Shown: in pieces, positions 7,170-26,280 of the stretch
How the letters are laid out: the number at the start of each line of letters is the position of its first letter
Position numbering within the stretch: position 1 is the first letter of the stretch
Notes under the pieces: model-generated
What the model saw: only the letters and a program-made list of their open reading frames with translations
Told to the model about the DNA's origin: nothing
The model's database searches: none
DNA from: a virus
Lineage: Duplodnaviria > Caudoviricetes
DNA length: 49,744 nucleotides
Direction: 5' to 3' (one strand)
IMG/VR virus record: IMGVR_UViG_3300032212_000019
Coordinates: 1 to 49,744 of that record
Translations under genes and position numbers: made by a program

Positions 7170-7730
7170 TTAGTCAAATGCTGTTTCTGTTTGAGTTACT
7201 TGTACCCAGTAACGAGTATTAGCTAAAGAGCTATCGTTATCTACGTAGTCAGGAATCTCAACAACAACGAAGTCAGAGTTTGTATTAGAACCAACTTCTT
7301 GAAGTGAAAGACCAGTTGTAGCTGAACCAGCTGTGGCAACTAAGTCACATGGGTCGCCAACAACTAGGTCAAGGTCAGCATCAGATTGAACTTCAAACAC
7401 TGTATCACGAGCAGGTACGTAGAAAACTACGTAGTCTGTATGTACAGATGCAGAGTCATCGTAATAGATTTTGTTAAGGTTTTCAGGATCGACTGCTGAA
7501 CCGATAGAACCAGTCATTTCATCAATCTTACCGAAACCAACAGCAACACCTAAAATAGCAGCGTCGTTTGTAGCAGCAACAGCCGCAAGTCCTGACTCAA
7601 GGTTTAGCAAGTCACCAACAAAGATGTCGGCTCCGTCAGCTACACCGATTGCTCGGACTTGGCCTGTTACAGAAGCACCAGAAGTGTGCTTAATTGGCGT
7701 GAAACCGCGAGGGCGATCTGGATTTGCCAT
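7170..7730 (-). CDS. Putative capsid decoration/cement protein
   Basis: 'MAN.D.P.GF.P', 'IFVGDL', 'ILGV.VG', 'FEVQ.D' motifs; directly upstream of MCP. Confidence 0.6.
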   Translation of the reverse strand: MANPDRPRGFTPIKHTSGASVTGQVRAIGVADGADIFVGDLLNLESGLAAVAATNDAAILGVAVGFGKIDEMTGSIGSAVDPENLNKIYYDDSASVHTDYVVFYVPARDTVFEVQSDADLDLVVGDPCDLVATAGSATTGLSLQEVGSNTNSDFVVVEIPDYVDNDSSLANTRYWVQVTQTETAFD

Positions 7731-8243: not shown

Positions 8244-9074
8244 TTATTTGCCATTACGGTCAAAATAATCCTTTACGAACTCTTCCTCAGTGATCTTACT
8301 CGTACGAAGAATAGTCTTCATTACTGATCGTGCTTCTGAGGGTAAGTCCTTTGCAGTAAATTTAGTCTTACTCTTAGCTTGCCTTGGAGCGGCCCCACCT
8401 TCTACAGCAGCTGGCTTCTTACGGCTAGTATTAGTAAACTTATCTGAATAACTGCGTTTAATATGTTTAGAAACTGCTGCGTATACTTCTTCTCGGCTCT
8501 TCTCTGGGTGTTTAGTCCAGTAGATTTCACCATAGATGTCTGCATCATCGCGTAGTTCCTGATCGTCATTATACCAAGAGTTATCTGCTATCCATGTCTC
8601 GAAATCTTCATTAGATTGCTTCTCTTGTTTAATCTCTTCCTTGGCCTTTTCTCGTTCATCGGCCAGTTGTTCCTCGATCTCAACAACTTTATGATTATCG
8701 CCATCATCCATTGCTTCGACTTTCTGTCGTTTTAAATCTTCTATAACTTTCTTCCGTTCATCTGCTCTTATATCTTCTTGGTATTTATTGATGTTTTCAA
8801 TATCACCTTGAAGACGTTTATTCTGTCGCTTAAGAGAATGAATATCATCGTAAAGTCCTTGTCGGTCTAGGAACTCCTCGGCACTTAAGTTTTTCTTACC
8901 TTCGACACCCTCTGGTGACCAACCCTTATCGATAGCACTTAGTTCTTCTTCCGTGTATTCAGGGGCTTCTTCTACTACTTCTACTGCTTCAACATCACCT
9001 TTATCTTCGGCTAGTGCTGCTTCAAAGTCTTCTTTAGTAGGTACTGCTACTTCTTCTTCGGCTGCTTCGGCCAT
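8244..9074 (-). CDS. Putative capsid scaffolding protein
   Basis: Acidic coiled-coil, 'GW.P', 'W...N.WY' motifs, basic C-terminus; between portal and MCP. Confidence 0.7.
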   Translation of the reverse strand: MAEAAEEEVAVPTKEDFEAALAEDKGDVEAVEVVEEAPEYTEEELSAIDKGWSPEGVEGKKNLSAEEFLDRQGLYDDIHSLKRQNKRLQGDIENINKYQEDIRADERKKVIEDLKRQKVEAMDDGDNHKVVEIEEQLADEREKAKEEIKQEKQSNEDFETWIADNSWYNDDQELRDDADIYGEIYWTKHPEKSREEVYAAVSKHIKRSYSDKFTNTSRKKPAAVEGGAAPRQAKSKTKFTAKDLPSEARSVMKTILRTSKITEEEFVKDYFDRNGK

Positions 9075-9397
9075 TATACTTTCTCCTTAGTATGCACTAT
9101 TGCAATTACATCTTCATCATTACAAACGATATATGAGTCATCACCATCTTCGACAACTTTACCAGAGTACTTAGCATAGTAAACGGTATCGCCAACTTGA
9201 GCCCAAGGATTACCTTCATCAAATCCTAGCCAAGCATTAGGGCCTACACCCTCAATAACACCGATAACTGTTGCTGCTCTATCTCGTTTCCAATCATCAC
9301 CAACGTCTAACTTAAAACCTTTTAAGGCCCCATCTTCTACTTCTTCTTCAAAGTGTTGTGGCCTAATCAGGACTCTATGTCCTACTACTTCAATCAT
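9074..9397 (-). CDS. groES: GroES/Cpn10-like co-chaperonin
   Basis: 'GHRVLIRP', 'G.I..VGP', 'VGDTVYYAKYSG', 'NDEDVIA' match the Cpn10 signature. Confidence 0.85.
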   Translation of the reverse strand: MIEVVGHRVLIRPQHFEEEVEDGALKGFKLDVGDDWKRDRAATVIGVIEGVGPNAWLGFDEGNPWAQVGDTVYYAKYSGKVVEDGDDSYIVCNDEDVIAIVHTKEKV

Positions 9398-11496: not shown

Positions 11497-12914
11497 CGAC
11501 CAGTAGAATCGTCATCATCTTCGTATTCATCTTCCCAGTCCTCGTCTAGTTTCTCTTCGTGGGTTAAGCCCTCTATGTACTTATCGAGAGCTAGTCCAAC
11601 CCATGCTAGGGAATCTACTTGGTCATCATGCTTAGACCTAGGGAACTGTATCATTTCTTGTTCTAAATCTGCGTACCACGATGCTTCTTTGTTAAAGTAG
11701 ACACCACCAGCTCTCATTCGTGCCTGTATAGAACGTGCCCTACTTGTCTTATCTTTGATAGGTACCATCTCATTAAGTGAGATAAAGATACCCCTATTCT
11801 GCATCTCTTTACGTAGGAAAGGGCCAATAGCTTTCTGGATAGCCCCTGCTTCTACTGTGAATATCTCCGGTTTGTACCGTTTATATACACTGAATATCTC
11901 ATCGATGATCTCAAGGGAATCCCAACGGCCCCTCCGTACATCGATAACGTACATGTTATTTTCACTATCTACACCAACAGTACTAATAACAGTGTAGTCA
12001 GCCCGGTCAGCATCTGAGATAGCAAAGTCAACAGCTGAGTAGTAGTAAAGGTGCTTATCAGCTATATCATCATCATCATACGTTAAGAAGTCTTCTTTCT
12101 TAAAGTAAGCACTTGCTTCATCAATCGGATAGTTAAGGTACTCTTGACTATAACCTTCTGGCATACCTTGTTGGATATACCCGCGTCGGATCCGTTGTAG
12201 ACGCTCTTTGTTAAACTTCTCTGGCCACAGAATCTCCGAGAAGTCTTCATTGTGTGCCCGGTACCGCTTAGATGTCCACTCAGGGTCGTTTAAGAGCCTC
12301 TCTAAGAGCGAATCTAAGTGTAGGATAGTACCTACTATACGTACCTTACAATCGTCTGCTCCAGCGGGTAAGAGGGCCTTAAAGAACCAGTTACGGAACT
12401 TCTCGCGACGGTCCTTATTCATTACCATCTCATCATTCTCAAGGTCATCCCCAAGAATCATATCAGGTCGTCTATTACGCCACTTCATACCACGAACTTT
12501 CTGTTCAGAACCCTTAACTTCTATTCTGAACTGGTAACCATCTTCCATTTCAACGATTACTTTGGTTTGTGCATCGGTAGTAAACTTCATCTTACCGAAT
12601 AAACCGACTAATTCTTCATTTTCTTCCAGTTCTATCTTAATATCACCTAAGAACTGTATGGCCTGCCCTTCTGTATCCGATACAATAACGATATACTTCG
12701 CTTCTCGGAATAATGCTGCACTTAAGGCAAAGCTAAGGGTTACGCTGGTACTCTTAGCGTGGCCACGAGGGGCGGCTAGTGCTACCCAAGGGTCATCTAA
12801 ACAACACATCTCCCATAACTCTGAATGAAAATCAGGTATTGGGGTTGGTTTATCAAACCTACTAGCAAGAACTGACCCAGTAAATCCTTTTACTCCGTGA
12901 GCCGTTAACTTCAA
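11475..12914 (-). CDS. terL: Terminase large subunit
   Basis: Walker A 'APRGHAKS', Walker B 'ILGDDLE', motif III 'VGT', nuclease 'AVDFA', 'HDDQVD'. Confidence 0.95.
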   Translation of the reverse strand: MKLTAHGVKGFTGSVLASRFDKPTPIPDFHSELWEMCCLDDPWVALAAPRGHAKSTSVTLSFALSAALFREAKYIVIVSDTEGQAIQFLGDIKIELEENEELVGLFGKMKFTTDAQTKVIVEMEDGYQFRIEVKGSEQKVRGMKWRNRRPDMILGDDLENDEMVMNKDRREKFRNWFFKALLPAGADDCKVRIVGTILHLDSLLERLLNDPEWTSKRYRAHNEDFSEILWPEKFNKERLQRIRRGYIQQGMPEGYSQEYLNYPIDEASAYFKKEDFLTYDDDDIADKHLYYYSAVDFAISDADRADYTVISTVGVDSENNMYVIDVRRGRWDSLEIIDEIFSVYKRYKPEIFTVEAGAIQKAIGPFLRKEMQNRGIFISLNEMVPIKDKTSRARSIQARMRAGGVYFNKEASWYADLEQEMIQFPRSKHDDQVDSLAWVGLALDKYIEGLTHEEKLDEDWEDEYEDDDDSTGRCIITGY

Positions 12915-13352
12915 TTACTCGCCTTTATGCTTCGTATTGTACTTTTTACCTTTCCAAGTAAAGATTTTTTTACCAGCTGCACGAGCCGCCTTAAATGCTG
13001 AACCAAATGAAGGTGTCTTCTTAGCTGGGGCCTTCTTAGTAGCTGCTTTCTTCGCTGCTGCTGCCTTCTTGCGGTCAGCTGGACCACCTGTACGTACGAT
13101 AGTGGTCTTAGTACTACCACCCTTACCGCCTGTCGTAGACGGTGTACGTTTCAAGGTAATACGGCTACCTTCGCCTTTCTTATGTGCTGTCTTGAAAGGG
13201 TCTTTCTTATTAGTACGTGTCAGAGCCTTGACGATTGTATCACCACCTGACTTCTTACCGCCCTTAACAGGGCCCGGGTTACGTACACGTTTCTTAGCTG
13301 TAGTAGTTGTAGGTTTACGTGGTGCTCTACGTCTTGATGCTCGTGTGGCCAT
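12915..13352 (-). CDS. Highly basic histone H1-like protein
   Basis: K/R/A/T-rich with KKAAAAKKAATKKAPAKK; ends 'F..AF..AR..G.K.F.W.GK.Y.T'. Confidence 0.7.
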   Translation of the reverse strand: MATRASRRRAPRKPTTTTAKKRVRNPGPVKGGKKSGGDTIVKALTRTNKKDPFKTAHKKGEGSRITLKRTPSTTGGKGGSTKTTIVRTGGPADRKKAAAAKKAATKKAPAKKTPSFGSAFKAARAAGKKIFTWKGKKYNTKHKGE

Positions 13353-13879
13353 TACTTATCTTCCTTTGTGACTAACGATACTACAGAGCCACCAGCAACC
13401 TTCTCAAACTTCTCTTGGAGAGTCTCTAAACGGTCTTCTAAGGTAGACTTAGTATCTACATTAATATTCTCACCCCGTACAAGGGCACGTTTGTCGTACA
13501 TGATACCTGCAATAACAGCTGAATCTCTAGCTGAAACAGGTTTATAATCTACCTCAGAACCATTCTTGAATGGGTCACCCTTAATCAAGCGGTCAGCTGT
13601 ATTCTGTAAGGCAAGGTCTAGGATACTGGATAACTTGCGGTCAGCTGCTTGACCCGCTACAGAACGAGCAGCATGGCATACTTCTGTAAACCACTCAGTA
13701 CGTTTCCAAGCAGCACAGGTACCGTAGGTTAGTTCAGCTATTTCAGCTGATTTACGCATAGAGTTACCGCTAACGTAAGCAATAAAGAAATTAGCTACTT
13801 TAGCTGAATCTGTATGTGAACCCTTAAGGTTCTCAATTATCTGTACTAGGTGACTATAATCTAGTTTAAATGAAGGCAT
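13352..13879 (-). CDS. Putative terminase small subunit
   Basis: N-terminal HTH-like segment 'MRKSAEIAELTYGTCAAWK...W'; 'D...IAGI.YDKR.L..G'; upstream of TerL. Confidence 0.65.
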   Translation of the reverse strand: MPSFKLDYSHLVQIIENLKGSHTDSAKVANFFIAYVSGNSMRKSAEIAELTYGTCAAWKRTEWFTEVCHAARSVAGQAADRKLSSILDLALQNTADRLIKGDPFKNGSEVDYKPVSARDSAVIAGIMYDKRALVRGENINVDTKSTLEDRLETLQEKFEKVAGGSVVSLVTKEDK

Positions 13880-14161
13880 CTATTTACCCTTTCGTTTGGT
13901 AGCGGTCTTCTTTCTACCCGCTGTCTTAGTTCTAGCAAAAGAACGATTACCTTTCTTAGATTGAACCTTGAGATTACTCTTACTATTATTCTTGGTATTA
14001 TTATCTTTATGGGCTACATCTTTACCAGCTATCTTCTTACCCGCTTTCTTAGCAATTAACCGGGCTCTGTTATTAGCTGCACGTTTAGGCTTCTCACCTC
14101 TAGCATCGCTAGTACGCTTTTCTTGCTTGTAGTTACGCTTGTAGTTAGGAGATGAAGGCAC
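13880..14161 (-). CDS. Basic HNH-like endonuclease
   Basis: 'RNYK.E', 'DVAHKDNN..NN..SNL.V.....NR' HNH-like core; GTG start at 14161 coupled to the upstream stop. Confidence 0.6.
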   Translation of the reverse strand: MPSSPNYKRNYKQEKRTSDARGEKPKRAANNRARLIAKKAGKKIAGKDVAHKDNNTKNNSKSNLKVQSKKGNRSFARTKTAGRKKTATKRKGK

Positions 14162-14319
14162 TAAGCTGCTCCACCAACACACTTACCATTGACCATCTTA
14201 CCACCAACAGCTTTACAATTACGGATAGCTGCCTTAGAACCAGAGCCCTTAGTGTACCCCTTCTTACTGGAAGGAGGTATAGAACCCATGGCTAATTTTT
14301 GACTCATCTTCTTTTGCAT
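14161..14319 (-). CDS. 52-aa basic protein (not in ORF track)
   Basis: MQKKMSQKLAMGSIPPSSKKG...CKAVGGKMVNGKCVGGAA; GGAG RBS; fills the gap. Confidence 0.55.
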   Translation of the reverse strand: MQKKMSQKLAMGSIPPSSKKGYTKGSGSKAAIRNCKAVGGKMVNGKCVGGAA

Positions 14320-14321
14320 TT

Positions 14322-14561
14322 CTAAATCTCCACCTTAGCTACTTCTTCAATACGGTCTACACAACCAACAGGGTATTCATTTACATCTGCCCATTTCTTA
14401 TTAATCTTATCGTAGGTAGACCCTATTCTGTAGACACCATTTGTCTTATTCACATAGAAACCAGCTGACTTAAGAACTGGAAGGGCTTTAGTAGGTTCAT
14501 CCTGCCACCCTGATGTACACTCAATATCTTTCCAATGTACTATTACCAATCGTTTCTTCAT
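14322..14561 (-). CDS. Conserved small phage protein, first gene of the late arm
   Basis: 'V.V.W.D....GW', 'S.GF', 'P.GCV..I' motif common upstream of terminases. Confidence 0.7.
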   Translation of the reverse strand: MKKRLVIVHWKDIECTSGWQDEPTKALPVLKSAGFYVNKTNGVYRIGSTYDKINKKWADVNEYPVGCVDRIEEVAKVEI

Positions 14562-14853
14562 TTAGCTGATACCTGAATTAGGGGGTTCCAAGTTTTTGTC
14601 AGCTGAGTTGGAACCGTAAAAGGAACTCAGGTTGAGCTGAGAAATCAATCTAGCTTCAATTCTTGTTACTGGGACAGGGCGGGTGGGTACCACCGGGTAT
14701 ATTAGCTATACCTATGTAATATAAGTAAGCTAAGCTGAATAAAGAATCTCCTAAGTCATTCAGAGTAGAATACCCTAGGAGTTTTACAAGGTGTGTGAAG
14801 TGTATATAACCTTGTAAGCTAAGACAGTATAAATTTCCTTAGTCTATACTAAT

Positions 14854-14882
14854 ATTATACCATATATACTAACAAAAGTCAA
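14854..14882 (-). promoter_or_regulatory. sigma70 promoter for the structural arm
   Basis: TTGACT-17-TATAAT with extended -10 TGG on the minus strand. Confidence 0.8.
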
Positions 14883-15094
14883 GCACTTTCTTCATCTAAT
14901 TTAGTGATGTGAGGTATAACAAGGACTTACAGGGAAGGGCTCTTTAGAAAATATATAAATTGTGACAAGGGGGGTATCCTCCCCATCTGGCAAGGGGGCG
15001 GTCTTTGTCCCCCCGTACCCCTCGGCTTGAACTGGATTAATTCTAAGGATAACCCCACGTATACTGGGTCAATTGGTACACCTCAGGCAGGCTG

Positions 15095-15111
15095 GTATAC
15101 CTCGGGTATAA
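15095..15111. repeat. 17-bp palindrome copy (GTATACC-TCG-GGTATAA)
   Basis: 1 mismatch to TTATACC-N3-GGTATAA. Confidence 0.7.
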
Positions 15112-15331
15112 CTCAGTTAGCTGGATACAATTGGCTAACCCCATCGAGCCTATGTTGTCCCTTTGTCCTGAGGACGTTGGATTGTAAGGGGAGACCCCCC
15201 CCCATATAAACCAAGTACTTACCAGTCAATCACCATATACCCCCCAGACCGCCGGAGAGCCCTTGTAAGCGACTATCTATAAACCCTTACCATAGCACTA
15301 CTACGTTCAGGTTATAGCCTTAGACGTACAG

Positions 15332-15369
15332 CGCACCAACACAGTGCAAGAGTGCACCAGGATAGTGCA
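15332..15369. promoter_or_regulatory. Two tandem NtrC-like boxes
   Basis: CGCACCAACACAGTGCA (15332-15348) and TGCACCAGGATAGTGCA (15353-15369); GCAC-N7-GTGC; centres 21 bp apart. Confidence 0.65.
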
Positions 15370-15385
15370 ATATAATACATAACCT

Positions 15386-15398
15386 TATCAATACCTTA
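15386..15398 (+). promoter_or_regulatory. IHF consensus site 1
   Basis: TATCAATACCTTA matches WATCAANNNNTTR. Confidence 0.55.
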
Positions 15399-15402
15399 TG
15401 GC

Positions 15403-15422
15403 CTAGATGATAATCATTATCA
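15403..15422. promoter_or_regulatory. Fur box
   Basis: Perfect 7-1-7 TGATAAT-C-ATTATCA at 15408-15422; 15/19 match to GATAATGATAATCATTATC. Confidence 0.75.
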
Positions 15423-15428
15423 ATAACA

Positions 15429-15445
15429 CGCACTATTATGGTGCA
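15429..15445. promoter_or_regulatory. Third NtrC-like box
   Basis: CGCACTATTATGGTGCA. Confidence 0.7.
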
Positions 15446-15479
15446 AATCAGGGTATACTTATATACTAAACTGTAATAA

Positions 15480-15492
15480 AATCAATGACTTA
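15480..15492 (+). promoter_or_regulatory. IHF consensus site 2
   Basis: AATCAATGACTTA matches WATCAANNNNTTR, directly upstream of the -24 element. Confidence 0.65.
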
Positions 15493-15496
15493 AAAC

Positions 15497-15513
15497 TTGG
15501 CACGGTAACTGCA
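15497..15513 (+). promoter_or_regulatory. sigma54 (-24/-12) promoter
   Basis: TTGGCACG-GTAA-CTGCA; GG-N10-GC spacing; ~60 bp upstream of the first early ATG. Confidence 0.75.
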
Positions 15514-15551
15514 TTATATTACAGTAACTTTAACAGGCCATTTGGCCACAC

Positions 15552-15568
15552 TTATATCAGGGGTATAA
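15552..15568. repeat. 17-bp palindrome copy containing the RBS
   Basis: TTATATC-AGG-GGTATAA, 3 nt before ATG 15572. Confidence 0.75.
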
Positions 15569-15571
15569 AAC

Positions 15572-15781
15572 ATGACTAAACTAAACATAGGCGACACACT
15601 TCCAAACGGGGCTTTACTACTAGCCGAGCATAACAACGTGGTATTAGCCAAGGCACGAGGCGTAGAGCCTTATGTAACGTGGGAACATAACGGCGACTAT
15701 GGCACTTACTGGGGTCACTACTTCCGTAATGAAGCCGATGCAATGCGCGACTACTTAAACCGTTCTAACGTGGGGGCATAG
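15572..15781 (+). CDS. First early gene, hypothetical
   Basis: 'YVTW....G..YWGHYF' motif; downstream of the sigma54 promoter. Confidence 0.7.
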   Translation: MTKLNIGDTLPNGALLLAEHNNVVLAKARGVEPYVTWEHNGDYGTYWGHYFRNEADAMRDYLNRSNVGA

Positions 15782-15868
15782 GTTAATGATAGACTTCAAA
15801 TACTACTGGGGCTTATACGTATATTGTGGCGTTATGTTTTTACTAACACTTATCGAGAGGGTTTACGC

Positions 15869-16072
15869 ATGAACTATTACACTACAATCAACGGGAATAT
15901 TAAAGGCGTACATGACAACATAGCCGATGCACGTCGGCAGTTATTAAAGGCTGTACTGGTACGCTCAAAGGACTACTTTCACGCGCTCACTAATGACTAT
16001 ATGGGTATTGATGGGTTAATGAGTGTACACGTTAACGGCGACGATATTAAAATCGAGAGGGTAGCGGGATGA
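15869..16072 (+). CDS. Early hypothetical protein
   Basis: MNYY start with GAGAGG RBS inside ORF 15824..16072. Confidence 0.6.
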   Translation: MNYYTTINGNIKGVHDNIADARRQLLKAVLVRSKDYFHALTNDYMGIDGLMSVHVNGDDIKIERVAG

Positions 16073-16236
16073 TTGACAAAGACGATGAAAATTACAAGGC
16101 GGGTTATCAGGCACACTGGGAATATATCACATTTGGTATAGAGCCAGAGTACACACCAATTCAAGACGGCTCGCCACAAGATGAAGCATATATGGCGGGA
16201 TGGAGTGCATCGGAAAGAGTTAAACGCTGGAATTAA
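16069..16236 (+). CDS. 55-aa RMF-like small protein (not in ORF track)
   Basis: MIDKDDENYKAGYQAHW...P...EAYMAGWSA; ATGA overlap with the upstream stop. Confidence 0.55.
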   Translation: MIDKDDENYKAGYQAHWEYITFGIEPEYTPIQDGSPQDEAYMAGWSASERVKRWN

Positions 16237-16265
16237 TTGACAGGGTATAGAGTATATGAGATTAT
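16237..16265 (+). promoter_or_regulatory. sigma70 promoter
   Basis: TTGACA-17-GATTAT with TG extended -10. Confidence 0.55.
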
Positions 16266-16319
16266 GTACTCTATGCCGTATCAATTGGATACGATATACA
16301 ACCAAAAGAGGGTAAGACA

Positions 16320-16919
16320 ATGGAATTAGTACAAAATGACACAACCGAGCAAGCTATCGATTTTCAACTAGTTGAGCAATACGAGAAGGACTTGACCAAG
16401 GCCGCTACTGATATGCTTACAGGTGAAACTGGATACAAGGCGCAAGTGTACAAGCTACTTGGCAGTGAGCACCACCTAGACGAAGGTATGCTGGCAATGG
16501 TGCGTATGTTCAGTGCTATTGAGCATAGCTATACTAAAGAGCAGGGAAAGGAAAAGAACCAAACACTATCTAAGCTACGCAAGGCTATAGCTAGATTTTG
16601 TGAAGATACTGATACTGAAAAGCTCACAGTTAAGGTGCGTAAAGTATCAGATGTAAGTGATAGCTTAATGCATACCGACCACGGCGAGGGAACCGTTATG
16701 GCTCTCGTACCCGCTAAAGCTCAGGCCAAGAAACAAGGTGGCGAGGGCTCAGAGGGTGAAGGTGAGCAAGAGTCAGATGGTGATGCGCTTATGGCTACAC
16801 TAGATAGTGAGTATCAGGTCGCGGTCAATGCTTTTCGCAAAGACCCTTGCCTCAATAACAAGCTAATACTTGACGGTATCATGGAGCAGATGATAACAGT
16901 GAGTGTATTAGCGGCTTAG
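16320..16919 (+). CDS. Early hypothetical acidic protein
   Basis: 199-aa ORF with GAGG RBS; no recognised motif. Confidence 0.75.
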   Translation: MELVQNDTTEQAIDFQLVEQYEKDLTKAATDMLTGETGYKAQVYKLLGSEHHLDEGMLAMVRMFSAIEHSYTKEQGKEKNQTLSKLRKAIARFCEDTDTEKLTVKVRKVSDVSDSLMHTDHGEGTVMALVPAKAQAKKQGGEGSEGEGEQESDGDALMATLDSEYQVAVNAFRKDPCLNNKLILDGIMEQMITVSVLAA

Positions 16920-16920
16920 G

Positions 16921-16961
16921 TTTATCAGATACCCTTGTATTATGCAGGGGTATCGAATAAA
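16921..16961 (+). other. Intergenic RNA hairpin
   Basis: GATACCCTTGTAT pairs with ATGCAGGGGTATC (two G-U pairs), flanked by TTTAT/ATAAA. Confidence 0.6.
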
Positions 16962-16962
16962 C

Positions 16963-16979
16963 TTATACCAAGGGTATAA
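16963..16979. repeat. 17-bp palindrome copy
   Basis: TTATACC-AAG-GGTATAA. Confidence 0.85.
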
Positions 16980-17010
16980 CTTACTACATTCACGAAAAGG
17001 AGAAGGACAA

Positions 17011-17166
17011 ATGAATAACTACACATACGAGCAAAAGGTAGAAATGTATAAGGCAGGCACATACAAATTTGAAGTACCACCTGTATGCACTGTACCTTGG
17101 GACGTGGATAGTTGGATAAGGTTTATTGATGCCTGTGATGGGTGGCCTAAACTAGAGCCGATATGA
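17011..17166 (+). CDS. Early hypothetical protein
   Basis: MNNY start after AGGAG/AAGGA RBS. Confidence 0.65.
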   Translation: MNNYTYEQKVEMYKAGTYKFEVPPVCTVPWDVDSWIRFIDACDGWPKLEPI

Positions 17167-17168
17167 GC

Positions 17169-17197
17169 TTGACAGGGGTATAGGCATAGGGTAGCAT
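17169..17197 (+). promoter_or_regulatory. sigma70 promoter
   Basis: TTGACA-17-TAGCAT. Confidence 0.5.
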
Positions 17198-17257
17198 AGG
17201 GTATATGGAGAAAGTCGCTTAGAGAGCTTCTAAGGAGCTTACAAAGGACATTTAGAT

Positions 17258-17683
17258 ATGAACATAGATAACTTACTACATACAATCGAGACTAATGCCC
17301 CTAAGCGGTTCAGGGTGTCACTTGATGCACCTAACACATACCCTGAACTTATATCTCGGTATAACTCGGATGGGATATTGACAGTGTATAGCGGTGCTAG
17401 TGATAAGTGCTTATATCCTGAGCGGTATAATCATCTGTTTAGGGCTTGGCATGATATGGTACACATTGATAATGGCTTGACGTTTAGCTTTGATGATGAG
17501 CTTGAGGTAGCTCGGATACAGTGCAGTAAGTGTAAGGACTTGTTATCTAAGGACTTATTATGGCTTGACATAGCAGGCCAAGTATGGTACTATGAAACTC
17601 ATAAGAAATATGTTGACAACCAAGCTGAGTTCGTGTATGGTTTATATGAATCTGGCTTACGATATGGAGATTTACCAAACTAA
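17258..17683 (+). CDS. Conserved phage protein, possible metal-dependent enzyme
   Basis: 'N.LFRAWHD..H' and 'F...E' motif. Confidence 0.65.
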   Translation: MNIDNLLHTIETNAPKRFRVSLDAPNTYPELISRYNSDGILTVYSGASDKCLYPERYNHLFRAWHDMVHIDNGLTFSFDDELEVARIQCSKCKDLLSKDLLWLDIAGQVWYYETHKKYVDNQAEFVYGLYESGLRYGDLPN

Positions 17684-17685
17684 AC

Positions 17686-17702
17686 TTATACCACAGGTAT
17701 AA
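17686..17702. repeat. 17-bp palindrome copy
   Basis: TTATACC-ACA-GGTATAA, intergenic. Confidence 0.85.
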
Positions 17703-17720
17703 CTAATAGGAGAAAGAATA

Positions 17721-17903
17721 ATGGTACTAACAAAAGAAGATATAGGAAAACAGTTCAAGGTGATAGATAATACATGCTGCCATGACTTTTACATCGGTGA
17801 AATTGTAGCCTTTAAGGGTTTCGATGGCGATGGACACGCGATGTTTAATAACTCAGAAGATTTCTGGTGGTTAGATGAAGACTATGAAGTGGAGAGAGTA
17901 TAA
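17721..17903 (+). CDS. Small SH3-like hypothetical protein
   Basis: AGGAG RBS; 'IGK.FKV......H.F.IG.IV'. Confidence 0.65.
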   Translation: MVLTKEDIGKQFKVIDNTCCHDFYIGEIVAFKGFDGDGHAMFNNSEDFWWLDEDYEVERV

Positions 17904-18061
17904 TGACTACTTTCACGAAACACGAGCTATTTATGAACCAAGCACCGTCATTTAACTTTGAGCTGGATGCAGACGAGTTACTGGCTAAGGCTCTCGAGCT
18001 TGGCTTTGTAACACCAGTCGATGGTGAAGATGACCTATACGTTATGAATGAGGATTATTGA
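17903..18061 (+). CDS. 52-aa acidic protein (not in ORF track)
   Basis: MTTFTKHELFMNQAPSFNFELDADELL...; TAATG coupling. Confidence 0.65.
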   Translation: MTTFTKHELFMNQAPSFNFELDADELLAKALELGFVTPVDGEDDLYVMNEDY

Positions 18062-18062
18062 G

Positions 18063-18458
18063 ATGAAAATTAAACACGAACAGCCATTCATCCTCTTTAG
18101 CTCGGATGTATCAGGGCACAATACCTTAGCTGATATTATAAATGTATCGTCTATTGTATCTGACCTACAGAGAAAAGAGATACTATTCAAACAGTTACTG
18201 GGTAAGTGGCGCGGTAATCTTGAGGGTGCATTCCTTGTCAATGCCTCTCATCGTGATGAAGTACTTGAACTGGCTGATAAGTATAACCAGACCCACGTAC
18301 TTTATGTGGATGACAGGCGTTCAGCGTATCTTATTACTGTGGCCGATGGTAGGCAAGAGTTTATTGGTACGTTTACAAGGGTTGACAAGGACTTTGCTTT
18401 GTGCCAAGATACCTATACATATGACCCACAGCATGACCAATATTGGTGTGTTAAATAA
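18063..18458 (+). CDS. S-adenosylmethionine lyase (T3 SAMase-like)
   Basis: 'ILFSS', 'G.W.G..E.AFLV', 'LA.KYNQ..VL', 'G.F..V', 'YTYD....W.V' follow the T3 SAMase motif order and size; early region. Confidence 0.65.
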   Translation: MKIKHEQPFILFSSDVSGHNTLADIINVSSIVSDLQRKEILFKQLLGKWRGNLEGAFLVNASHRDEVLELADKYNQTHVLYVDDRRSAYLITVADGRQEFIGTFTRVDKDFALCQDTYTYDPQHDQYWCVK

Positions 18459-18460
18459 AT

Positions 18461-18477
18461 TTATACCGGAGGTATAA
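18461..18477. repeat. 17-bp palindrome copy containing the RBS
   Basis: TTATACC-GGA-GGTATAA (contains GGAGGT), 2 nt before ATG 18480. Confidence 0.85.
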
Positions 18478-18479
18478 CT

Positions 18480-18680
18480 ATGAACACGCAAGACAAGGCT
18501 ATTAAAGATTATAAGGACAAGATAAAGAACCCCATGACAGCGATACGGGCATTCTGTGTCTCTTGTATGGGTGGGTATGTAGGTGAGGTTGGAAGCTGTA
18601 CGGCTAAGGACTGCGCCCTGTACCCGTTCAGGATGGGTAAGAACCCCCATCACACTAGAAAACCTAAACCAGGGCAATAA
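18480..18680 (+). CDS. Conserved zinc-binding phage protein
   Basis: 'AIRAFC..CMG.......C....CALYPFR'. Confidence 0.75.
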   Translation: MNTQDKAIKDYKDKIKNPMTAIRAFCVSCMGGYVGEVGSCTAKDCALYPFRMGKNPHHTRKPKPGQ

Positions 18681-18705
18681 TATGCCTTATTAAGGAGGAT
18701 TTATC

Positions 18706-18870
18706 ATGGCTATGTACTACTGTAAACAATGCGGGACATTGACAGATGATGACTATGACCCAATGAATGAAGATGAGTTATGTACTGACTGTGCATGTGA
18801 AACATATGACTTATCTTATGATGAACAGAAACATGACTACTTGGAGGGACTTGGCCTTGATAGAGACTAA
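18706..18870 (+). CDS. 54-aa zinc-ribbon protein (not in ORF track)
   Basis: MAMYYCKQC...CTDC...DYLEGLGLD; AAGGAGG RBS. Confidence 0.7.
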   Translation: MAMYYCKQCGTLTDDDYDPMNEDELCTDCACETYDLSYDEQKHDYLEGLGLDRD

Positions 18871-19030
18871 ACCAACCCTGACCCACTACGTGGATACTGT
18901 GCTGGCTTATATCGCTGGTATAACATTAATTGGCCTGATGATATGGGCTACCGTATACAGTGAGCACTTTGACAATACATTCCTTGTGGGTGGATTACCA
19001 AGTGAAGCTGTACAAGTTGATTGTGAATAG
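18767..19030 (+). CDS. Small membrane protein (true start likely downstream)
   Basis: One hydrophobic segment VLAYIAGITLIGLMIWATV. Confidence 0.5.
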   Translation: MKMSYVLTVHVKHMTYLMMNRNMTTWRDLALIETKPTLTHYVDTVLAYIAGITLIGLMIWATVYSEHFDNTFLVGGLPSEAVQVDCE

Positions 19031-19039
19031 GAGAAAGCT

Positions 19040-19447
19040 ATGAGCCTAGTCGAAGATAAACCTAAAACCTCTTGGCGTGTATATGAGGGGAAACATTACA
19101 GTATTGAGGTTGTGTGTTGGGTGAAGTGGGTTGACCGTGACAAGAATGAACCTGTATATGGTTGGAATGTGTACCTTTATATCATGTCAGAGCATAACCT
19201 ATATGATAAAGATTCATTCTTAAAAGACCAATTGCCTTGGCATTGTGGGTGTACATATGACTCGAAGGTTATTGAGCAACCATTTGAGTTGAAGTATGAT
19301 TTTCAAAGGGTAACTGAGTATAAGAAGATAGGCTCAGATTATAGCCACCTGTATGACGATGCTTATGAAACATTTAGTCCTAGTGATGGTATACCTGCTA
19401 GTATTCACTGTGACGTATTGGAGTTAATTAAAACATTAGAGGATTAA
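19040..19447 (+). CDS. Conserved phage protein
   Basis: 'WHCGCTY', 'IGSDY.H..D' motif; AGGAG RBS. Confidence 0.75.
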   Translation: MSLVEDKPKTSWRVYEGKHYSIEVVCWVKWVDRDKNEPVYGWNVYLYIMSEHNLYDKDSFLKDQLPWHCGCTYDSKVIEQPFELKYDFQRVTEYKKIGSDYSHLYDDAYETFSPSDGIPASIHCDVLELIKTLED

Positions 19448-19451
19448 AGCT

Positions 19452-19817
19452 ATGAAACCACAAACTATATTTAACCGAGCAGTAAGGCACTTGAATAAAC
19501 AGGGTAGTAGATGCCTCAATGACAACGGGGCGTGTGCTTATCGAGGTAACGAGGGTGCTATGTGTGCTGTAGGGGCGTTAATACCTGACTCGCTGTACGA
19601 GGAGACTATGGACGAGAGTGGTGGTAAAACCGTTACAACGGTGATGAAGGAGTACCCTGCTGTGGTTAGGTATTTGGGTGCAGATAATATCGACCTCTTA
19701 AGGCACTTACAGTCAATACATGATTCTGTATCAGTTGAGAGGTGGCGCATGAAGCTCCTCGCCCTTGCGGCAGAGATGGGACTCAAAACCACAGTAATGA
19801 AGGAGTGGACACTATGA
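19452..19817 (+). CDS. Conserved phage protein
   Basis: 'HL.KQG', 'C.YR...G..CAVG.LI', 'LQ.IHD'. Confidence 0.75.
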   Translation: MKPQTIFNRAVRHLNKQGSRCLNDNGACAYRGNEGAMCAVGALIPDSLYEETMDESGGKTVTTVMKEYPAVVRYLGADNIDLLRHLQSIHDSVSVERWRMKLLALAAEMGLKTTVMKEWTL

Positions 19818-20092
19818 ATACACTAGATAAAATTAAGGTAATGCGGGCGTATGTTGATGGAGCTGATGTTCAATACAAGCGCATCGATGGTACTTGGGAC
19901 AAGGCATCTACACCCTGTTGGAATTGGAGGGATAGAGAATACCGCATCAAGTCTAAGCCAGTCAAGCAATGGGTTAATGTTTATGAGGGGGGTGCGCTTG
20001 GTGCTAACTACGACACCAAAGAAGATGCTGAACAGGCTGCTAATGGTGAACAACTTAGAACTATACTCATGCGTGAGGTTGAGGGTGAGTAA
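19814..20092 (+). CDS. Conserved phage protein
   Basis: MNTL start overlapping the upstream stop; 'G..VQ.....W....P.WNW...YRIK'. Confidence 0.7.
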   Translation: MNTLDKIKVMRAYVDGADVQYKRIDGTWDKASTPCWNWRDREYRIKSKPVKQWVNVYEGGALGANYDTKEDAEQAANGEQLRTILMREVEGE

Positions 20093-22906: not shown

Positions 22907-23181
22907 TGAGGACTATTATACACGTTAACCAGCACCACATTAAGCACAATAGGAAATACCCAGATAAGGCCAAACCAGTATTGACCGTCAAGGTTGGCAA
23001 GGATAATTTCTACTGTAATGAGGTTGAGTTTGGGGATGGGTCTAGGGTTGTCTACCGTCCTGATAACCCGCTACCTTGCGGGGCTCATGTCTGGATTGAA
23101 GTGGCAGATGATATTAGGCAGGGGGCTACCTTCCCCGATGGGTATATGACGTATACTGAGACTAAGGGGGTTAAGGGGTGA
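22903..23181 (+). CDS. Conserved phage protein
   Basis: 'IIHVNQH.I..N', 'Y.PD.PL.CGA.VWIE'. Confidence 0.75.
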   Translation: MMRTIIHVNQHHIKHNRKYPDKAKPVLTVKVGKDNFYCNEVEFGDGSRVVYRPDNPLPCGAHVWIEVADDIRQGATFPDGYMTYTETKGVKG

Positions 23182-23696
23182 CTATCTACTTCTGTGACAT
23201 CGAGGGTAATGGCTTGCTAGTGGAGAAAGATGGTAACCCACCTATCTCTAAACTACACTGTATGTCTGTGAAGGCACTTGGCTGGGAACCAGTAACCTAT
23301 ACAGATATTGATACTCTACGTGGTTGGTTAGGGGTACTACGGGACAACACTACACTTGTACTACATAATGGTTTTGGGTACGACATGGATGCCCTAGTTA
23401 AACTTGGAGTTATATCTGGGTATAACTTGACTACCTTCACGCTTCCAGATGGTACCATAAAGAATGTACAGATTATAGATACACTAGCCCTTAGCAGGGA
23501 ATGGTGGCCAGATAATCCACGAGGGCATGGCTTAGAGGCTTGGGCTAAGTATCTTGGGACACACAAGCCAGAGATTGAGGACTGGCACAACCTACCAATT
23601 GAGGAGTACATTGACCGCTGTGAGAACGATGTTATAACAACTGAGAAAGTATTTGAGTTTCTTATTGATAAACTAGGAGTAACTTATGCCAGTTAA
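23178..23696 (+). CDS. DNA polymerase 3'-5' exonuclease subunit (split PolA)
   Basis: ExoI 'CDIEGNG', ExoII 'HNGFGYD', 'IDTL.LSR', ExoIII 'RCENDV'. Confidence 0.88.
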   Translation: MTIYFCDIEGNGLLVEKDGNPPISKLHCMSVKALGWEPVTYTDIDTLRGWLGVLRDNTTLVLHNGFGYDMDALVKLGVISGYNLTTFTLPDGTIKNVQIIDTLALSREWWPDNPRGHGLEAWAKYLGTHKPEIEDWHNLPIEEYIDRCENDVITTEKVFEFLIDKLGVTYAS

Positions 23697-23934
23697 GAAT
23701 ATTTGTTGTGAAGAAAAGAAGTGTACTAGTGATTGGCCTTATCCTTGCCTAATTAAGAACTGTATTACAGATAGGGTTTATCTCGTCTGGGATAAATATT
23801 TAGGTACAGTTGTCCAAGGCGATGGCATTGGAGAGGCTTCTAAGAAGACGGATAAGGCAAAGTCTTGGCATAGTGAACCCCATTGCTGGAAGATGTATGA
23901 AGGTACAGTTACCCTGTGCAATTCTAATAATTGA
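23686..23934 (+). CDS. Hypothetical protein
   Basis: AGGAG RBS; 'YP.L', 'GTVV', 'YEGTVTL.N'. Confidence 0.65.
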   Translation: MPVKNICCEEKKCTSDWPYPCLIKNCITDRVYLVWDKYLGTVVQGDGIGEASKKTDKAKSWHSEPHCWKMYEGTVTLCNSNN

Positions 23935-23945
23935 GGAGTAGAGGT

Positions 23946-24194
23946 ATGAGTGACTTTGCATGGGCTTTACAGATGATGCAGCAAGGCAAGAGTGTAAAAC
24001 GAAAAGGGTGGCAAGATGGTGTGTGTGCTTATTTTCATGACCCTAAAAAGAGTGAAAATCATCGGGGTAAGTACGCAAAGGAGTCCCTTAAAATGCCATA
24101 CCTAGCAACTTGCCACGTAGCCGCTTGTGAGTTAGCTGGAGTTAGGCTTGTGTCTGACTTCTTAGCCGTTGATTGGGAGTTAATGTATGAGTGA
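23946..24194 (+). CDS. Tad2/DUF2829-like protein (candidate anti-defence nucleotide sponge)
   Basis: 'F..AL..M..GK.V.RKGW', 'MPYL', 'SD.LA.DW' match the DUF2829 pattern. Confidence 0.65.
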   Translation: MSDFAWALQMMQQGKSVKRKGWQDGVCAYFHDPKKSENHRGKYAKESLKMPYLATCHVAACELAGVRLVSDFLAVDWELMYE

Positions 24195-24381
24195 TGATAT
24201 TGAAGTAGAATCTTTCAACACAACGGTTAGGGATTTTGAGGCCATCACAAGTATGCTTCATAATGCTGAGGTAGAGGGGTTACTAGTGGAAGTTGTATGG
24301 TCTTTCCACCAAGCAGCATCGGCTGGCGATAACATACCGCAAGCTACGGGCTTTGCTTTAAGTGAATGGGATATTATATGA
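24187..24381 (+). CDS. Small acidic protein
   Basis: 'GLLVEVVWSF', 'AL.EWDI'; coupled on both sides. Confidence 0.65.
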   Translation: MSDDIEVESFNTTVRDFEAITSMLHNAEVEGLLVEVVWSFHQAASAGDNIPQATGFALSEWDII

Positions 24382-25832
24382 TTAACCTTCCATTCAACGT
24401 AGAACTAGCCAACGCCACCTACTACCTCATGCAAAAGCAAGAGCGACAAGGTGTGTGCTTTGATGTAGAGGCCGCTAAGGAGCTCGTTAAGTACATTGAT
24501 AACCGTATGCAAGAGATTAAGGATGAGGTAGAACCTAAATTACCTCAACGTCCCTTGAATAAGGGAGAGCAAAGGGATTGGACACCACCTAAGATACAGT
24601 TTAAGAAGGATGGGACTCCCTCTGCTAATTGTCTTAAGTGGTTTGAATTGGTTATGTTGGACGACGAGGATAAGTGGGTTGGCCTTAAGAATAAAGGGTC
24701 TTATAGATTACCCCATAACGAGCCCATTATCAACTCACTACCAATGGAGCTTAAGCACCAACAGTACCTAAAGAATTGGTTTATGTCTCTTGGATGGAAA
24801 CCTACACTATGGAACTTCCAGAAGAAGAACGGTTCCTTTGTACGTGAGAATGGCCAGTTGGTTAAGACCTCCCCTAAGTTCCATGATAAGGGTCGTCTAT
24901 GCCCTAACTTAGAGTCACTTGGGGATAAGGTATCTCTATGTAAGCCAATTGTAGAGTGGCTGTCCTTACGTAACAGGCGTTCTGTACTACTCAATGAGGA
25001 GAAAGGCTCTGGCTGGCTATCTAACCCCAGGTTAGCTGTTGATGGTCGATTAGGAGCTGCCTCGAGTGGCCTGACTAATACTAAGAGGCAGAAGCACACT
25101 GTAGTAGCTAACGTACCTAGCTCTGATGCCTTACTTGGCCATGAGTTCCGTTCTTTATTCAGAGCCCGTAAGGGTATGACAATGGTAGGAGCTGATGCAA
25201 GTGGCCTAGAGGCACGTATTAAGGGTCACTATACGTTTAAGTATGATGGTGGTGAGTACGCACGTAAGTTACTTGACCCTGACTTTGATGAACACCAAGA
25301 GAATGCTGAGCTGTGGGGATGTGCCCGGAACGATGCTAAATCTCCCGGGTATGCACTTCAATATAACTGCCAGCCCCCTAAGTTTGCTGAGACACTTGGA
25401 GTATCCTTGGCTGAGGGTCTACCCCATTACGATGCGTACTGGAGACAGAACTGGGCTGTTAAGGATGCTATTACTGAGACTGAGCAAGAGTTTGAACGTA
25501 ACTTTAAGAAGTACATCACAACTATTGACGGGTCTAAGATTGTTACACGAGCTAAGCATTCTGTATTTAATGCTAAGTGTCAAAGTACAGGAGCAAAGTG
25601 TATGGACTTAGCTGGGTGGATAGCCGATGAGATGTTGACGGAGGCAGGTATTGAGGCTTACCGTACCATCTATTATCACGATGAGTTACAGTACGAGTGT
25701 TACCCAGATGATGCGGAACGGGTAGGGGAGATTCTCGTGGAGGCAATTAGAGAAGCTGGTAAACGGTTTAATCTAAACGTCCCATTGGATGGTGAATATA
25801 AGATTGGTAAGTCATGGGCAGATACCCATTGA
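24366..25832 (+). CDS. Family A DNA polymerase, polymerase subunit
   Basis: Motif A 'GADASGLEAR', motif B 'RNDAKSPGY' (Tyr at the 762-equivalent), motif C 'HDELQ', 'IGKSWADTH'. Confidence 0.92.
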   Translation: MGYYMINLPFNVELANATYYLMQKQERQGVCFDVEAAKELVKYIDNRMQEIKDEVEPKLPQRPLNKGEQRDWTPPKIQFKKDGTPSANCLKWFELVMLDDEDKWVGLKNKGSYRLPHNEPIINSLPMELKHQQYLKNWFMSLGWKPTLWNFQKKNGSFVRENGQLVKTSPKFHDKGRLCPNLESLGDKVSLCKPIVEWLSLRNRRSVLLNEEKGSGWLSNPRLAVDGRLGAASSGLTNTKRQKHTVVANVPSSDALLGHEFRSLFRARKGMTMVGADASGLEARIKGHYTFKYDGGEYARKLLDPDFDEHQENAELWGCARNDAKSPGYALQYNCQPPKFAETLGVSLAEGLPHYDAYWRQNWAVKDAITETEQEFERNFKKYITTIDGSKIVTRAKHSVFNAKCQSTGAKCMDLAGWIADEMLTEAGIEAYRTIYYHDELQYECYPDDAERVGEILVEAIREAGKRFNLNVPLDGEYKIGKSWADTH

Positions 25833-25877: not shown

Positions 25878-26084
25878 ATGAATACATTATTAATATTGTT
25901 AGCATTAGCAGCACCTGTAAACCCAGAGGTTATACATACTGAACTACTTTCATGCGAAGGACTATCAGCGGGTGATGTAGTGTTGGTTGTGAATAACGGG
26001 CAACCGTATAAGGTGAAGATATTAGATGTACATGGGGATTGTCATGTTAATTTAGTGGTACTTGAGGTAATTGACAATGAGTGA
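25878..26084 (+). CDS. Small protein with signal-peptide-like N-terminus
   Basis: MNTLLILLALAAP; GAGGT RBS. Confidence 0.6.
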   Translation: MNTLLILLALAAPVNPEVIHTELLSCEGLSAGDVVLVVNNGQPYKVKILDVHGDCHVNLVVLEVIDNE

Positions 26085-26280
26085 ACAATTGAAGCCGTGT
26101 CCGTTTTGTGGAGGTGAGGCAACCATCTCAATAATGAGTTATGGAAATGTAGTTTTATGTGAAAATTACTCGCTCGCTCGATGCCCACAAAAAGTAGTTT
26201 ACGAAGATATGGGAGTAACCCCAGCAATCAAAGCATGGAACACCCGCACAAGCAACGATAAGGGAAAGCAAAATGACTGA
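26071..26280 (+). CDS. Lar-family restriction alleviation protein
   Basis: 'LKPCPFCGG', 'C......C', 'AI.AWN.R'. Confidence 0.8.
   Translation: MTMSEQLKPCPFCGGEATISIMSYGNVVLCENYSLARCPQKVVYEDMGVTPAIKAWNTRTSNDKGKQND

Follow-up and report, generated by a model that had tools for sequence, protein, structure and literature searches.

The 1-kb gap between the early and terminase gene blocks of this phage contains a compact series of sites that resemble those bound by bacterial NtrC, IHF, Fur and sigma54. What would such a series do directly in front of the first early gene? We analysed the whole window, a complete virus record of 49,744 bp with terminal repeats, and considered whether the series (hereafter the cassette) is a working promoter and which genes it would then serve.

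Early and replication genes run rightward from 15572, and the terminase and structural genes run leftward from 14561. A family search of the 76 ORFs identified a primase/helicase, a split family A DNA polymerase, a B12-dependent ribonucleotide reductase, ejection-type virion proteins, a portal and a terminase. The DNA polymerase region (23178-25832) consists of separate exonuclease and polymerase genes, between which lie three small ORFs. A GroES-like gene (9074-9397) lies between the portal and the scaffold region and is also found in the relative L147. Counter-defence genes comprise a SAM lyase family member, a Tad2-like domain and a Lar-like protein (18048-18458, 23931-24194, 26071-26280). 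The original prediction took the phage to have neither RNA polymerase nor integrase; in agreement, neither family was matched among the 76 ORFs, about half of which have no family at all. The same set of ORFs yielded no repressor family, and the window contains no tRNA and no Rfam family. The region has no DNA similarity to cultured phages, the short matches being IHF-like words in Stx phages and chance hits, and no public RNA sequencing run was listed as carrying it. Since the motif types in the cassette point there, the host is presumably a proteobacterium. The sole contig match (L168, 50 kb, 51% TerL), within a Saccharibacteria MAG, was not used as host evidence, because it is probably a binned phage.

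Site architecture of the gap

Offsets are given from the first G of the GG doublet of the sigma54 element. In this numbering, the cassette consists of NtrC (-166), NtrC (-145), IHF (-113), Fur (-91), NtrC (-69) and IHF (-19) sites, followed by the sigma54 core and by the ATG at +73. The three NtrC-type boxes are GCAC-N7-GTGC cores (15333, 15354 and 15430) within unstranded 17-mers at 15332-15348, 15353-15369 and 15429-15445. The second box follows the first by 21 bp, or two helical turns, and the centres of the first and third lie at about -184 and -87 from the predicted transcription start. All three fit the 17-mer consensus TGCACCAnnnTGGTGCA given in the available text of PMC8743547. The two IHF sites, at 15386-15398 and 15480-15492 on the forward strand, both read WATCAANNNNTTR and fit the consensus in the accessible part of PMC2709558.

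The unstranded Fur-type box (15408-15422) is a perfect 7-1-7 palindrome, TGATAAT-C-ATTATCA, matching at 15 of 15 positions. It lies 6 bp from the third NtrC box and about 76 bp from the sigma54 core. We named the Fur and DnaA boxes from what we take to be their consensus sequences. A DnaA box is absent from the cassette, the one match lying about 1050 bp away within a gene. The forward-strand sigma54 -24/-12 element, TGGCACG-N4-CTGCA at 15498-15513, has its GG at 15499-15500 and its GC at 15511-15512, with a single departure from TTGC. By the -24/-12 convention, transcription would start near 15524. The cassette sites are single and ordered, unlike the repeated arrays of other phages described below.

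The element counts were scored against 5000 dinucleotide shuffles of 14562-15571, a check akin to one proposed with the original prediction, and exceeded the shuffle means throughout. The NtrC core, counted on two strands, occurred 6 times against a mean of 0.011, the exact IHF match twice against 0.051 and the sigma54 pattern once against 0.0026; the mean for the Fur box was 0.0. Nowhere else in the 49.7 kb is there such a Fur box, an exact IHF match or a TGGCAC-N6-TGC match, and three of the four NtrC-core sites also fall within the cassette (the fourth, at 7675, is inside a gene). IHF sites are not rare on the genome scale (shuffle mean 2.8), but their clustering is. All predicted boxes, including the GG-N10-GC spacing, are where they had been placed and far above chance.

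The NtrC- and IHF-dependent sigma54 promoter is a textbook type in bacteria. Like E. coli glnK, glnHp2 and glnAp2, the cassette has several upstream NtrC boxes and a GG-N10-GC core, and it combines the proximal NtrC offset of glnK (-69 in both) with the IHF offset of glnHp2 (first base at -20, against -19 for the proximal site of the cassette). In the E. coli K-12 record, the NtrC boxes are at -90 and -122 for glnA and at -90, -103 and -116 for glnH, whose IHF site is at -20. IHF is needed at glnHp2, according to the accessible part of PMC2709558. In contrast to these promoters, the cassette sits on a lytic-type phage and heads small genes without a family, includes, within its enhancer region, a Fur box and an additional IHF site, and has its distal NtrC pair (-145/-166) further out than the E. 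coli range of -90 to -122. The claim that an NtrC-activated sigma54 layout heads the first early gene gains weight from these offsets, from their retention in the distant phage L296 and from their recurrence elsewhere.

The first early gene (15572-15781, forward strand, 69 aa) has its ATG 73 bp after the GG and a Shine-Dalgarno-like AGGGG at 15559-15563. Its product is predicted to form a five-stranded sheet and a helix. It has one homolog (66%) and falls in viral clusters; weak leads to DarA_C/LPD24 gave no named family, and in a fold search the predicted structure matched only uncharacterised viral proteins. Three further forward ORFs would lie on the sigma54 transcript: a hydrophobic ORF of 28 aa (15786-15872), one of 67 aa (15869-16072) and one of 55 aa (16069-16236). 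Family and sequence searches gave no family for these four small genes or for 16320-16919. The 55-aa ORF has a GYQA...GW pattern resembling ribosome modulation factor (atlas row 0.82, 11% RMF share). The likeness is a weak lead that could not be confirmed: no Pfam PF04957, PDB sequence or fold match was obtained, and the model had a pLDDT of 58.

A long inverted repeat follows on the forward strand at 16235-16286 (RNA -27.3 kcal/mol, z -5.1). It likely marks the end or a processing point of the predicted sigma54 transcript, and it could act as a terminator, processing site, cruciform or operator. The repeat overlaps the first strong sigma70-type promoter (16237-16265), one of four 10/12 matches (16237, 17169, 17565 and 17613) further downstream on which the original prediction was silent; a fifth 10/12 match, at 17446, is inside a gene. 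From 16237 onward, sigma70-type promoters head most early genes, including the anti-restriction and replication genes. As they resume 0.7 kb downstream, only about four small genes would come under the cassette. Upstream of 15572, the sigma70-like matches directed at the gene are limited to two weak ones (9/12), one (15385-15414) overlapping the Fur box and the other (15497-15525) the sigma54 box, which agrees with the earlier view that no strong sigma70 promoter precedes it.

On the other side of the gap, a strong sigma70-type promoter (11/12, extended -10) at 14854-14882 on the reverse strand faces the terminase and late genes and is found likewise in the closest relative, L001. An unstranded A/T motif with a C-tract at 14940-15021 is common to the TerL relatives. 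We infer that the virion terminus lies in its neighbourhood, about 490 bp before the sigma54 box. The annotated 184-bp terminal repeat of LUZ24 starts with a C-tract. The Bruynogheviruses LUZ24 and PaP3 also resemble the present phage in lacking an RNA polymerase, in their split DNA polymerase region and in a terminase small subunit and early genes that diverge from a gene-free end region with a C-tract. They differ in having sigma70 promoters, and no cassette boxes, in their end regions; their primase/helicase is only 36% alike.

Spacing in distant phages and near relatives

A search for the Fur-NtrC pattern returned 10 loci, among them L296, a 42-kb podovirus with a TerL only 26% alike and a different first gene. 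L296 carries an imperfect NtrC box at -165, a half site near -143, IHF at -112, Fur at -90, NtrC at -69 and the sigma54 core. The distal NtrC, IHF, Fur, proximal NtrC and sigma54 elements are all within 1 bp of the cassette offsets. Its proximal IHF site is inverted, with the first base still at -19, and its Fur box is identical to that of the cassette at 14 of 15 positions. The five boxes share 53 of 73 bases between the two phages, the inner spacers 31 of 91. Constant spacing with drifting spacers is what would be expected of a looped protein-DNA complex. The base-exact NtrC-IHF-Fur-NtrC-sigma54 match in a distant phage is new here.

The same skeleton recurs in L021, L218, L319 and the L311 group, where a DnaA, IHF or further NtrC box takes the place of the Fur box, and NtrC pairs 20-21 bp apart also occur in L021 and in L311/L313/L318. 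In L296, a GC-rich leader of about 200 bp (1738-1930) extends from the sigma54 box to the first gene and is a possible structured RNA; a short hairpin-like leader downstream of the sigma54 box of L311 may be another.

The geometry was examined more widely in IMG/VR, where the IHF-sigma54, reversed-control and tandem-NtrC scans are samples and their figures refer to the matches listed. With -63 to -71 allowed, all 17 loci, from about 15 lineages, had the proximal NtrC box between -68 and -71; six of these loci had been seen beforehand, one is probably a chance match, and the range, which ends at -71, was chosen after earlier loci had been seen. Among the IHF-sigma54 matches listed, the gap between a direct IHF site and the sigma54 box was 4-7 bp in 88 of 101 clusters (3-9 allowed), and for an inverted site it was 16-20 bp in 60 of 86 and 27-28 bp in 14 of 86 (8-28 allowed). 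In both orientations the first consensus base, which the available text of PMC2709558 takes as the centre, falls at about -18 to -22 or one turn further. In the reversed IHF-sigma54 control, by contrast, spacing was flat and the three unsearched consensus bases were present in 15 of 76 clusters, against 62 of 101 in the forward set (matches listed). The reversed pattern is not rare in the raw count (about 170 stretches against about 290, matches listed), so only spacing and unsearched bases were used as evidence. This orientation-independent position of the IHF bend, set against a reversed control, is also new here.

Other distances behave as expected of promoters only in part. The first ATG with a Shine-Dalgarno sequence lay 53-83 bp after the GG in 26 of 94 clusters and in 2 of 69 controls (matches listed), the cassette value being 73. 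Nine unsearched proximal NtrC offsets followed a period of about 10.3 bp (R 0.93, 0 of 5000 permutations) in a test that left out three offsets beyond 130 bp and included three lineages already seen. Looser phasing over 159 clusters was weak (R 0.38), and its downstream control was just as strong (0.35 at 10 bp and 0.43 at 13 bp). An NtrC-like box was present within 300 bp upstream in 10 of the 86 inverted-IHF modules listed, and five such boxes accompanied the 101 direct-IHF clusters listed. Given so few NtrC-like boxes, most phage sigma54 modules probably use another activator or none. The IHF-sigma54 module with fixed geometry occurs in at least 100 viral lineages of IMG/VR, a minority of them with NtrC boxes, and the same Fur box accompanies it twice, in the cassette and in L296.

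The picture in near relatives is different. TerL searches gave relatives at 41-78% identity, and the equivalent gap was identified in six lineages. None of the six gaps contains the full forward cassette or NtrC boxes together with a forward sigma54 box, and four contain some host-protein boxes. In the closest relative (L001/G001, TerL 77%), the terminus side aligns, the gap has none of the boxes and weak sigma70-like sites precede the first gene; no strict sigma54 box was found in the whole L001 genome. The L002 gap contains IHF sites only, and that of L003 contains IHF sites and a degenerate sigma54-like box facing the terminus. In L147 the gap has an IHF-Fur-IHF series, an inverted sigma54 box (toward the terminus) and a DnaA box, and that of L158 combines Fur boxes and a DnaA box with a sigma54-like box inverted toward the terminus. 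A Fur-type box of L158, 4537 bases upstream of TerL, abuts the start codon of the first early gene. The gap of Alcaligenes phage QDWS535 has none of the boxes. Conservation of the boxes in relatives, which had been put forward as a test of the prediction, therefore fails in the near relatives (0 of 6) and holds in distant phages. The absence in near relatives is likewise new here.

The literature searched, which included few subscription papers, yielded no account of a phage early promoter under NtrC or Fur control. The only phage precedents found there were a sigma54-like promoter of YuA and the DnaA boxes of T5. Pseudomonas phage YuA, which has no polymerase of its own, is reported to use both sigma70 and sigma54 promoters, including the sigma54-like P015 (10.1101/2023.10.13.562163). 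The available part of that account names no NtrC, IHF or Fur sites, and the YuA genome has no exact match to a pattern fitting the cassette sigma54 box. Two other reports (PMC7693777 and 10.64898/2026.10.06.757011) were set aside because, in their accessible text, they concern phage proteins resembling sigma54 or activators and not promoters.

A candidate starvation-responsive promoter and its alternatives

We propose that the cassette is a working host-type sigma54 promoter that provides an auxiliary, lineage-specific starvation input to four small genes, switched on by phosphorylated NtrC and damped by Fur. We put the probability of this reading, drawn from site order and spacing, at roughly 55%. 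The sigma54 holoenzyme would wait as a closed complex at 15498-15513, with IHF at 15480 bending the DNA. In a nitrogen-limited host, phosphorylated NtrC at -87 and at the -163/-184 pair would loop over and open the complex near 15524. Iron-loaded Fur at -109, between the proximal NtrC site and the distal IHF and NtrC sites, would likely hinder the loop when iron is plentiful, so that output would be expected under joint nitrogen and iron shortage. The transcript would cover the four small ORFs and run to the hairpin at 16235-16286, and the bulk of the early genes would be served by their own sigma70-type promoters. We regard the input as auxiliary rather than as a gate because these sigma70-type promoters exist and near relatives lack the cassette. 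The Fur step is the least supported part of the model, resting on position and on one other phage.

Could the sites instead be a docking platform, the alternative raised with the original prediction? Abundant host proteins (the sigma54 closed complex, NtrC, Fur and IHF, and DnaA in other phages) would then coat the leading end as a shield, anchor or ratchet, or a closed complex would repress the weak overlapping sigma70 sites. Part of the case for this comes from tandem NtrC boxes, which occur at no fewer than 119 loci in IMG/VR. Among the matches listed, sigma54, Fur, IHF and DnaA boxes, none of them searched for, occurred beside tandem NtrC boxes 39, 7, 13 and 20 times in 49 clusters, against shuffle means of 3.3, 0.0, 2.3 and 2.3. 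At least one such box was present in 25 of the 49 clusters listed (7.4 in shuffles), and the enrichment also held against distal flanks. Many of these arrays are jumbled or inverted, have up to ten repeats or lack a sigma54 box, and the sigma54 boxes listed point toward early genes 26 times and toward late genes 16 times in 49 loci (8 against 5 clusters). LexA and CRP patterns gave 4 and 2 near matches in the 119 tandem-NtrC loci listed. Searches from the terS-like protein of L020 and the TerL of L075 found no close cultured relatives with arrays. A cluster of 17 loci with tandem NtrC-like matches was judged unrelated because it lies inside a replication-initiation gene, and the L023 match is probably due to chance.

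Several individual loci illustrate this variety. Nine near-identical prophage-like loci (L297-L305, about 1970-2045) have a Fur-NtrC-Fur series between HNH and terS, adjoining a G-tract that is a likely marker of cos; the two loci scanned for a sigma54 box contain none. In the cultured, T5-like Vibrio phage KIT04 (L295, 1469-1777), gene-free DNA toward the left end contains a Fur box, two perfect sigma54 boxes that face each other and three DnaA boxes. In aquatic podoviruses (L057, L064, L081, L092, L116 and others), dense DnaA and NtrC arrays follow a C-tract upstream of terS. The arrays of L008, L011, L015 and L018 contain a further repeated palindrome, with the core GTGAGCGCTCAC, among their NtrC and sigma54 boxes.

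The Fur-NtrC-Fur loci, KIT04 and the sigma54-like boxes that face the terminus in the TerL relatives L147, L003 and L158 are all in keeping with docking. So is the in silico model of the T5 injection-stop region, a DnaA box array in gene-free DNA close to the end that enters first, as proposed in the available text of 10.1101/866236, and repressive RpoN promoters are known from the accessible part of PMC8743547. The T5 region and the cassette both place host-protein sites near the first-injected end, the terminus being an inferred one in the present phage. Unlike the T5 region, the cassette has a promoter-like order and no DnaA boxes, and genes for two-step injection were not recognised. Moreover, base-exact spacing, a single IHF bend position common to both orientations, orientation-specific pairing of IHF with sigma54 and a start codon at promoter distance are features that a coat could do without, and the cassette sites are single, ordered and free of DnaA boxes. 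These observations suggest that docking suits the jumbled arrays of other phages, and thus part of the class, better than it suits the cassette, for which we consider it doubtful.

A second possibility is that sigma54 transcription from the leading end acts as an entry motor, pulling the genome into starved cells, in which sigma70 transcription is low, in the manner of T7 A1-A3. According to the available text of PMC11863960, host polymerase takes over in T7 once about 850 bp have been ejected. Measured from the inferred terminus of the present phage, the sigma54 box is reached after about 490 bp and the earliest strong sigma70-type promoter after about 1230 bp. Strong forward sigma70 matches are absent before 16237, and the comparison with T7 depends on the position of that terminus. 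Ejection-type virion proteins are present and an RNA polymerase match is absent. Among the tandem-NtrC matches listed, the sites were in the terminase/early gap in all 24 marker-bearing clusters of 57, often directly after a C-tract. However, 33 of the 57 have no marker and some markers come from the same loci, several being confirmed by PHROGs. As in the T7 system described in PMC11863960, so far as its available text goes, a host-polymerase promoter lies in the non-coding leading region of a podovirus; in contrast to it, a single activator-dependent sigma54 site takes the place of the three strong sigma70 promoters. Both the terminus and the injection polarity are inferred, the T7 numbers need not apply, and L001 manages with weak sigma70-like sites at the same place. 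We consider an entry motor unlikely.

The original prediction favoured a go/no-go or pseudolysogeny switch, in which the first genes are not expressed, and the lytic cycle halts, unless signals of nitrogen and iron starvation arrive. Sigma54 promoters require an activator, only weak sigma70-like matches precede 15572, and the search found no integrase or repressor family, all of which would accord with such a switch. Against it, the cassette is absent from all six identifiable TerL-related gaps, including that of the 77% relative, strong sigma70-type promoters 0.7 kb downstream head the anti-restriction and replication genes, and the four small genes lack close homologs by which they could be recognised as essential. 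The gate does not survive this comparison well, and we hold it to be very improbable.

Still less probable is a real sigma54 promoter without the nitrogen-and-iron logic, served by another activator with a similar palindrome, or one at which Fur is neutral or activating. Most of the phage IHF-sigma54 modules listed have no NtrC boxes, and the Fur position holds DnaA or IHF-like sites in L021, L319 and L311, so that this slot may need any bulky binder. Nevertheless, the three boxes fit the 17-mer in the accessible part of PMC8743547 and resemble the glnK and glnA sites, and the Fur box is kept at the same offset in L296. Finally, chance or an assembly artefact has next to nothing in its favour beyond the A/T richness of the region (66%), and can practically be dismissed, since the shuffle background is far below the observed counts, the same boxes recur in other phages, and a contig of a public microbial mat metagenome run, which may be the source sample and hence not independent, covers 12000-20000 without a difference.

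Implications for early phage transcription

A broader version of the starvation-input promoter can be stated tentatively, although we find it doubtful. Many unrelated lytic proteobacterial phages may have converged on a leading-end module that reads nitrogen (NtrC-sigma54) and iron (Fur) in the first seconds of infection, expressing a starvation kit and helping to pull the genome into starved cells. If this convergence is true, it would provide a sequence-readable mechanism for the nutrient-dependent outcome of infection in aquatic phages.

To our knowledge, phage early promoters have been assumed to be constitutive sigma70 sites. A nutrient-wired, activator-dependent promoter would instead tune the first phage genes to host starvation without an encoded sensor. 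The effect of nutrient limitation on lytic infection thereby becomes testable at a defined piece of DNA of about 200 bp.
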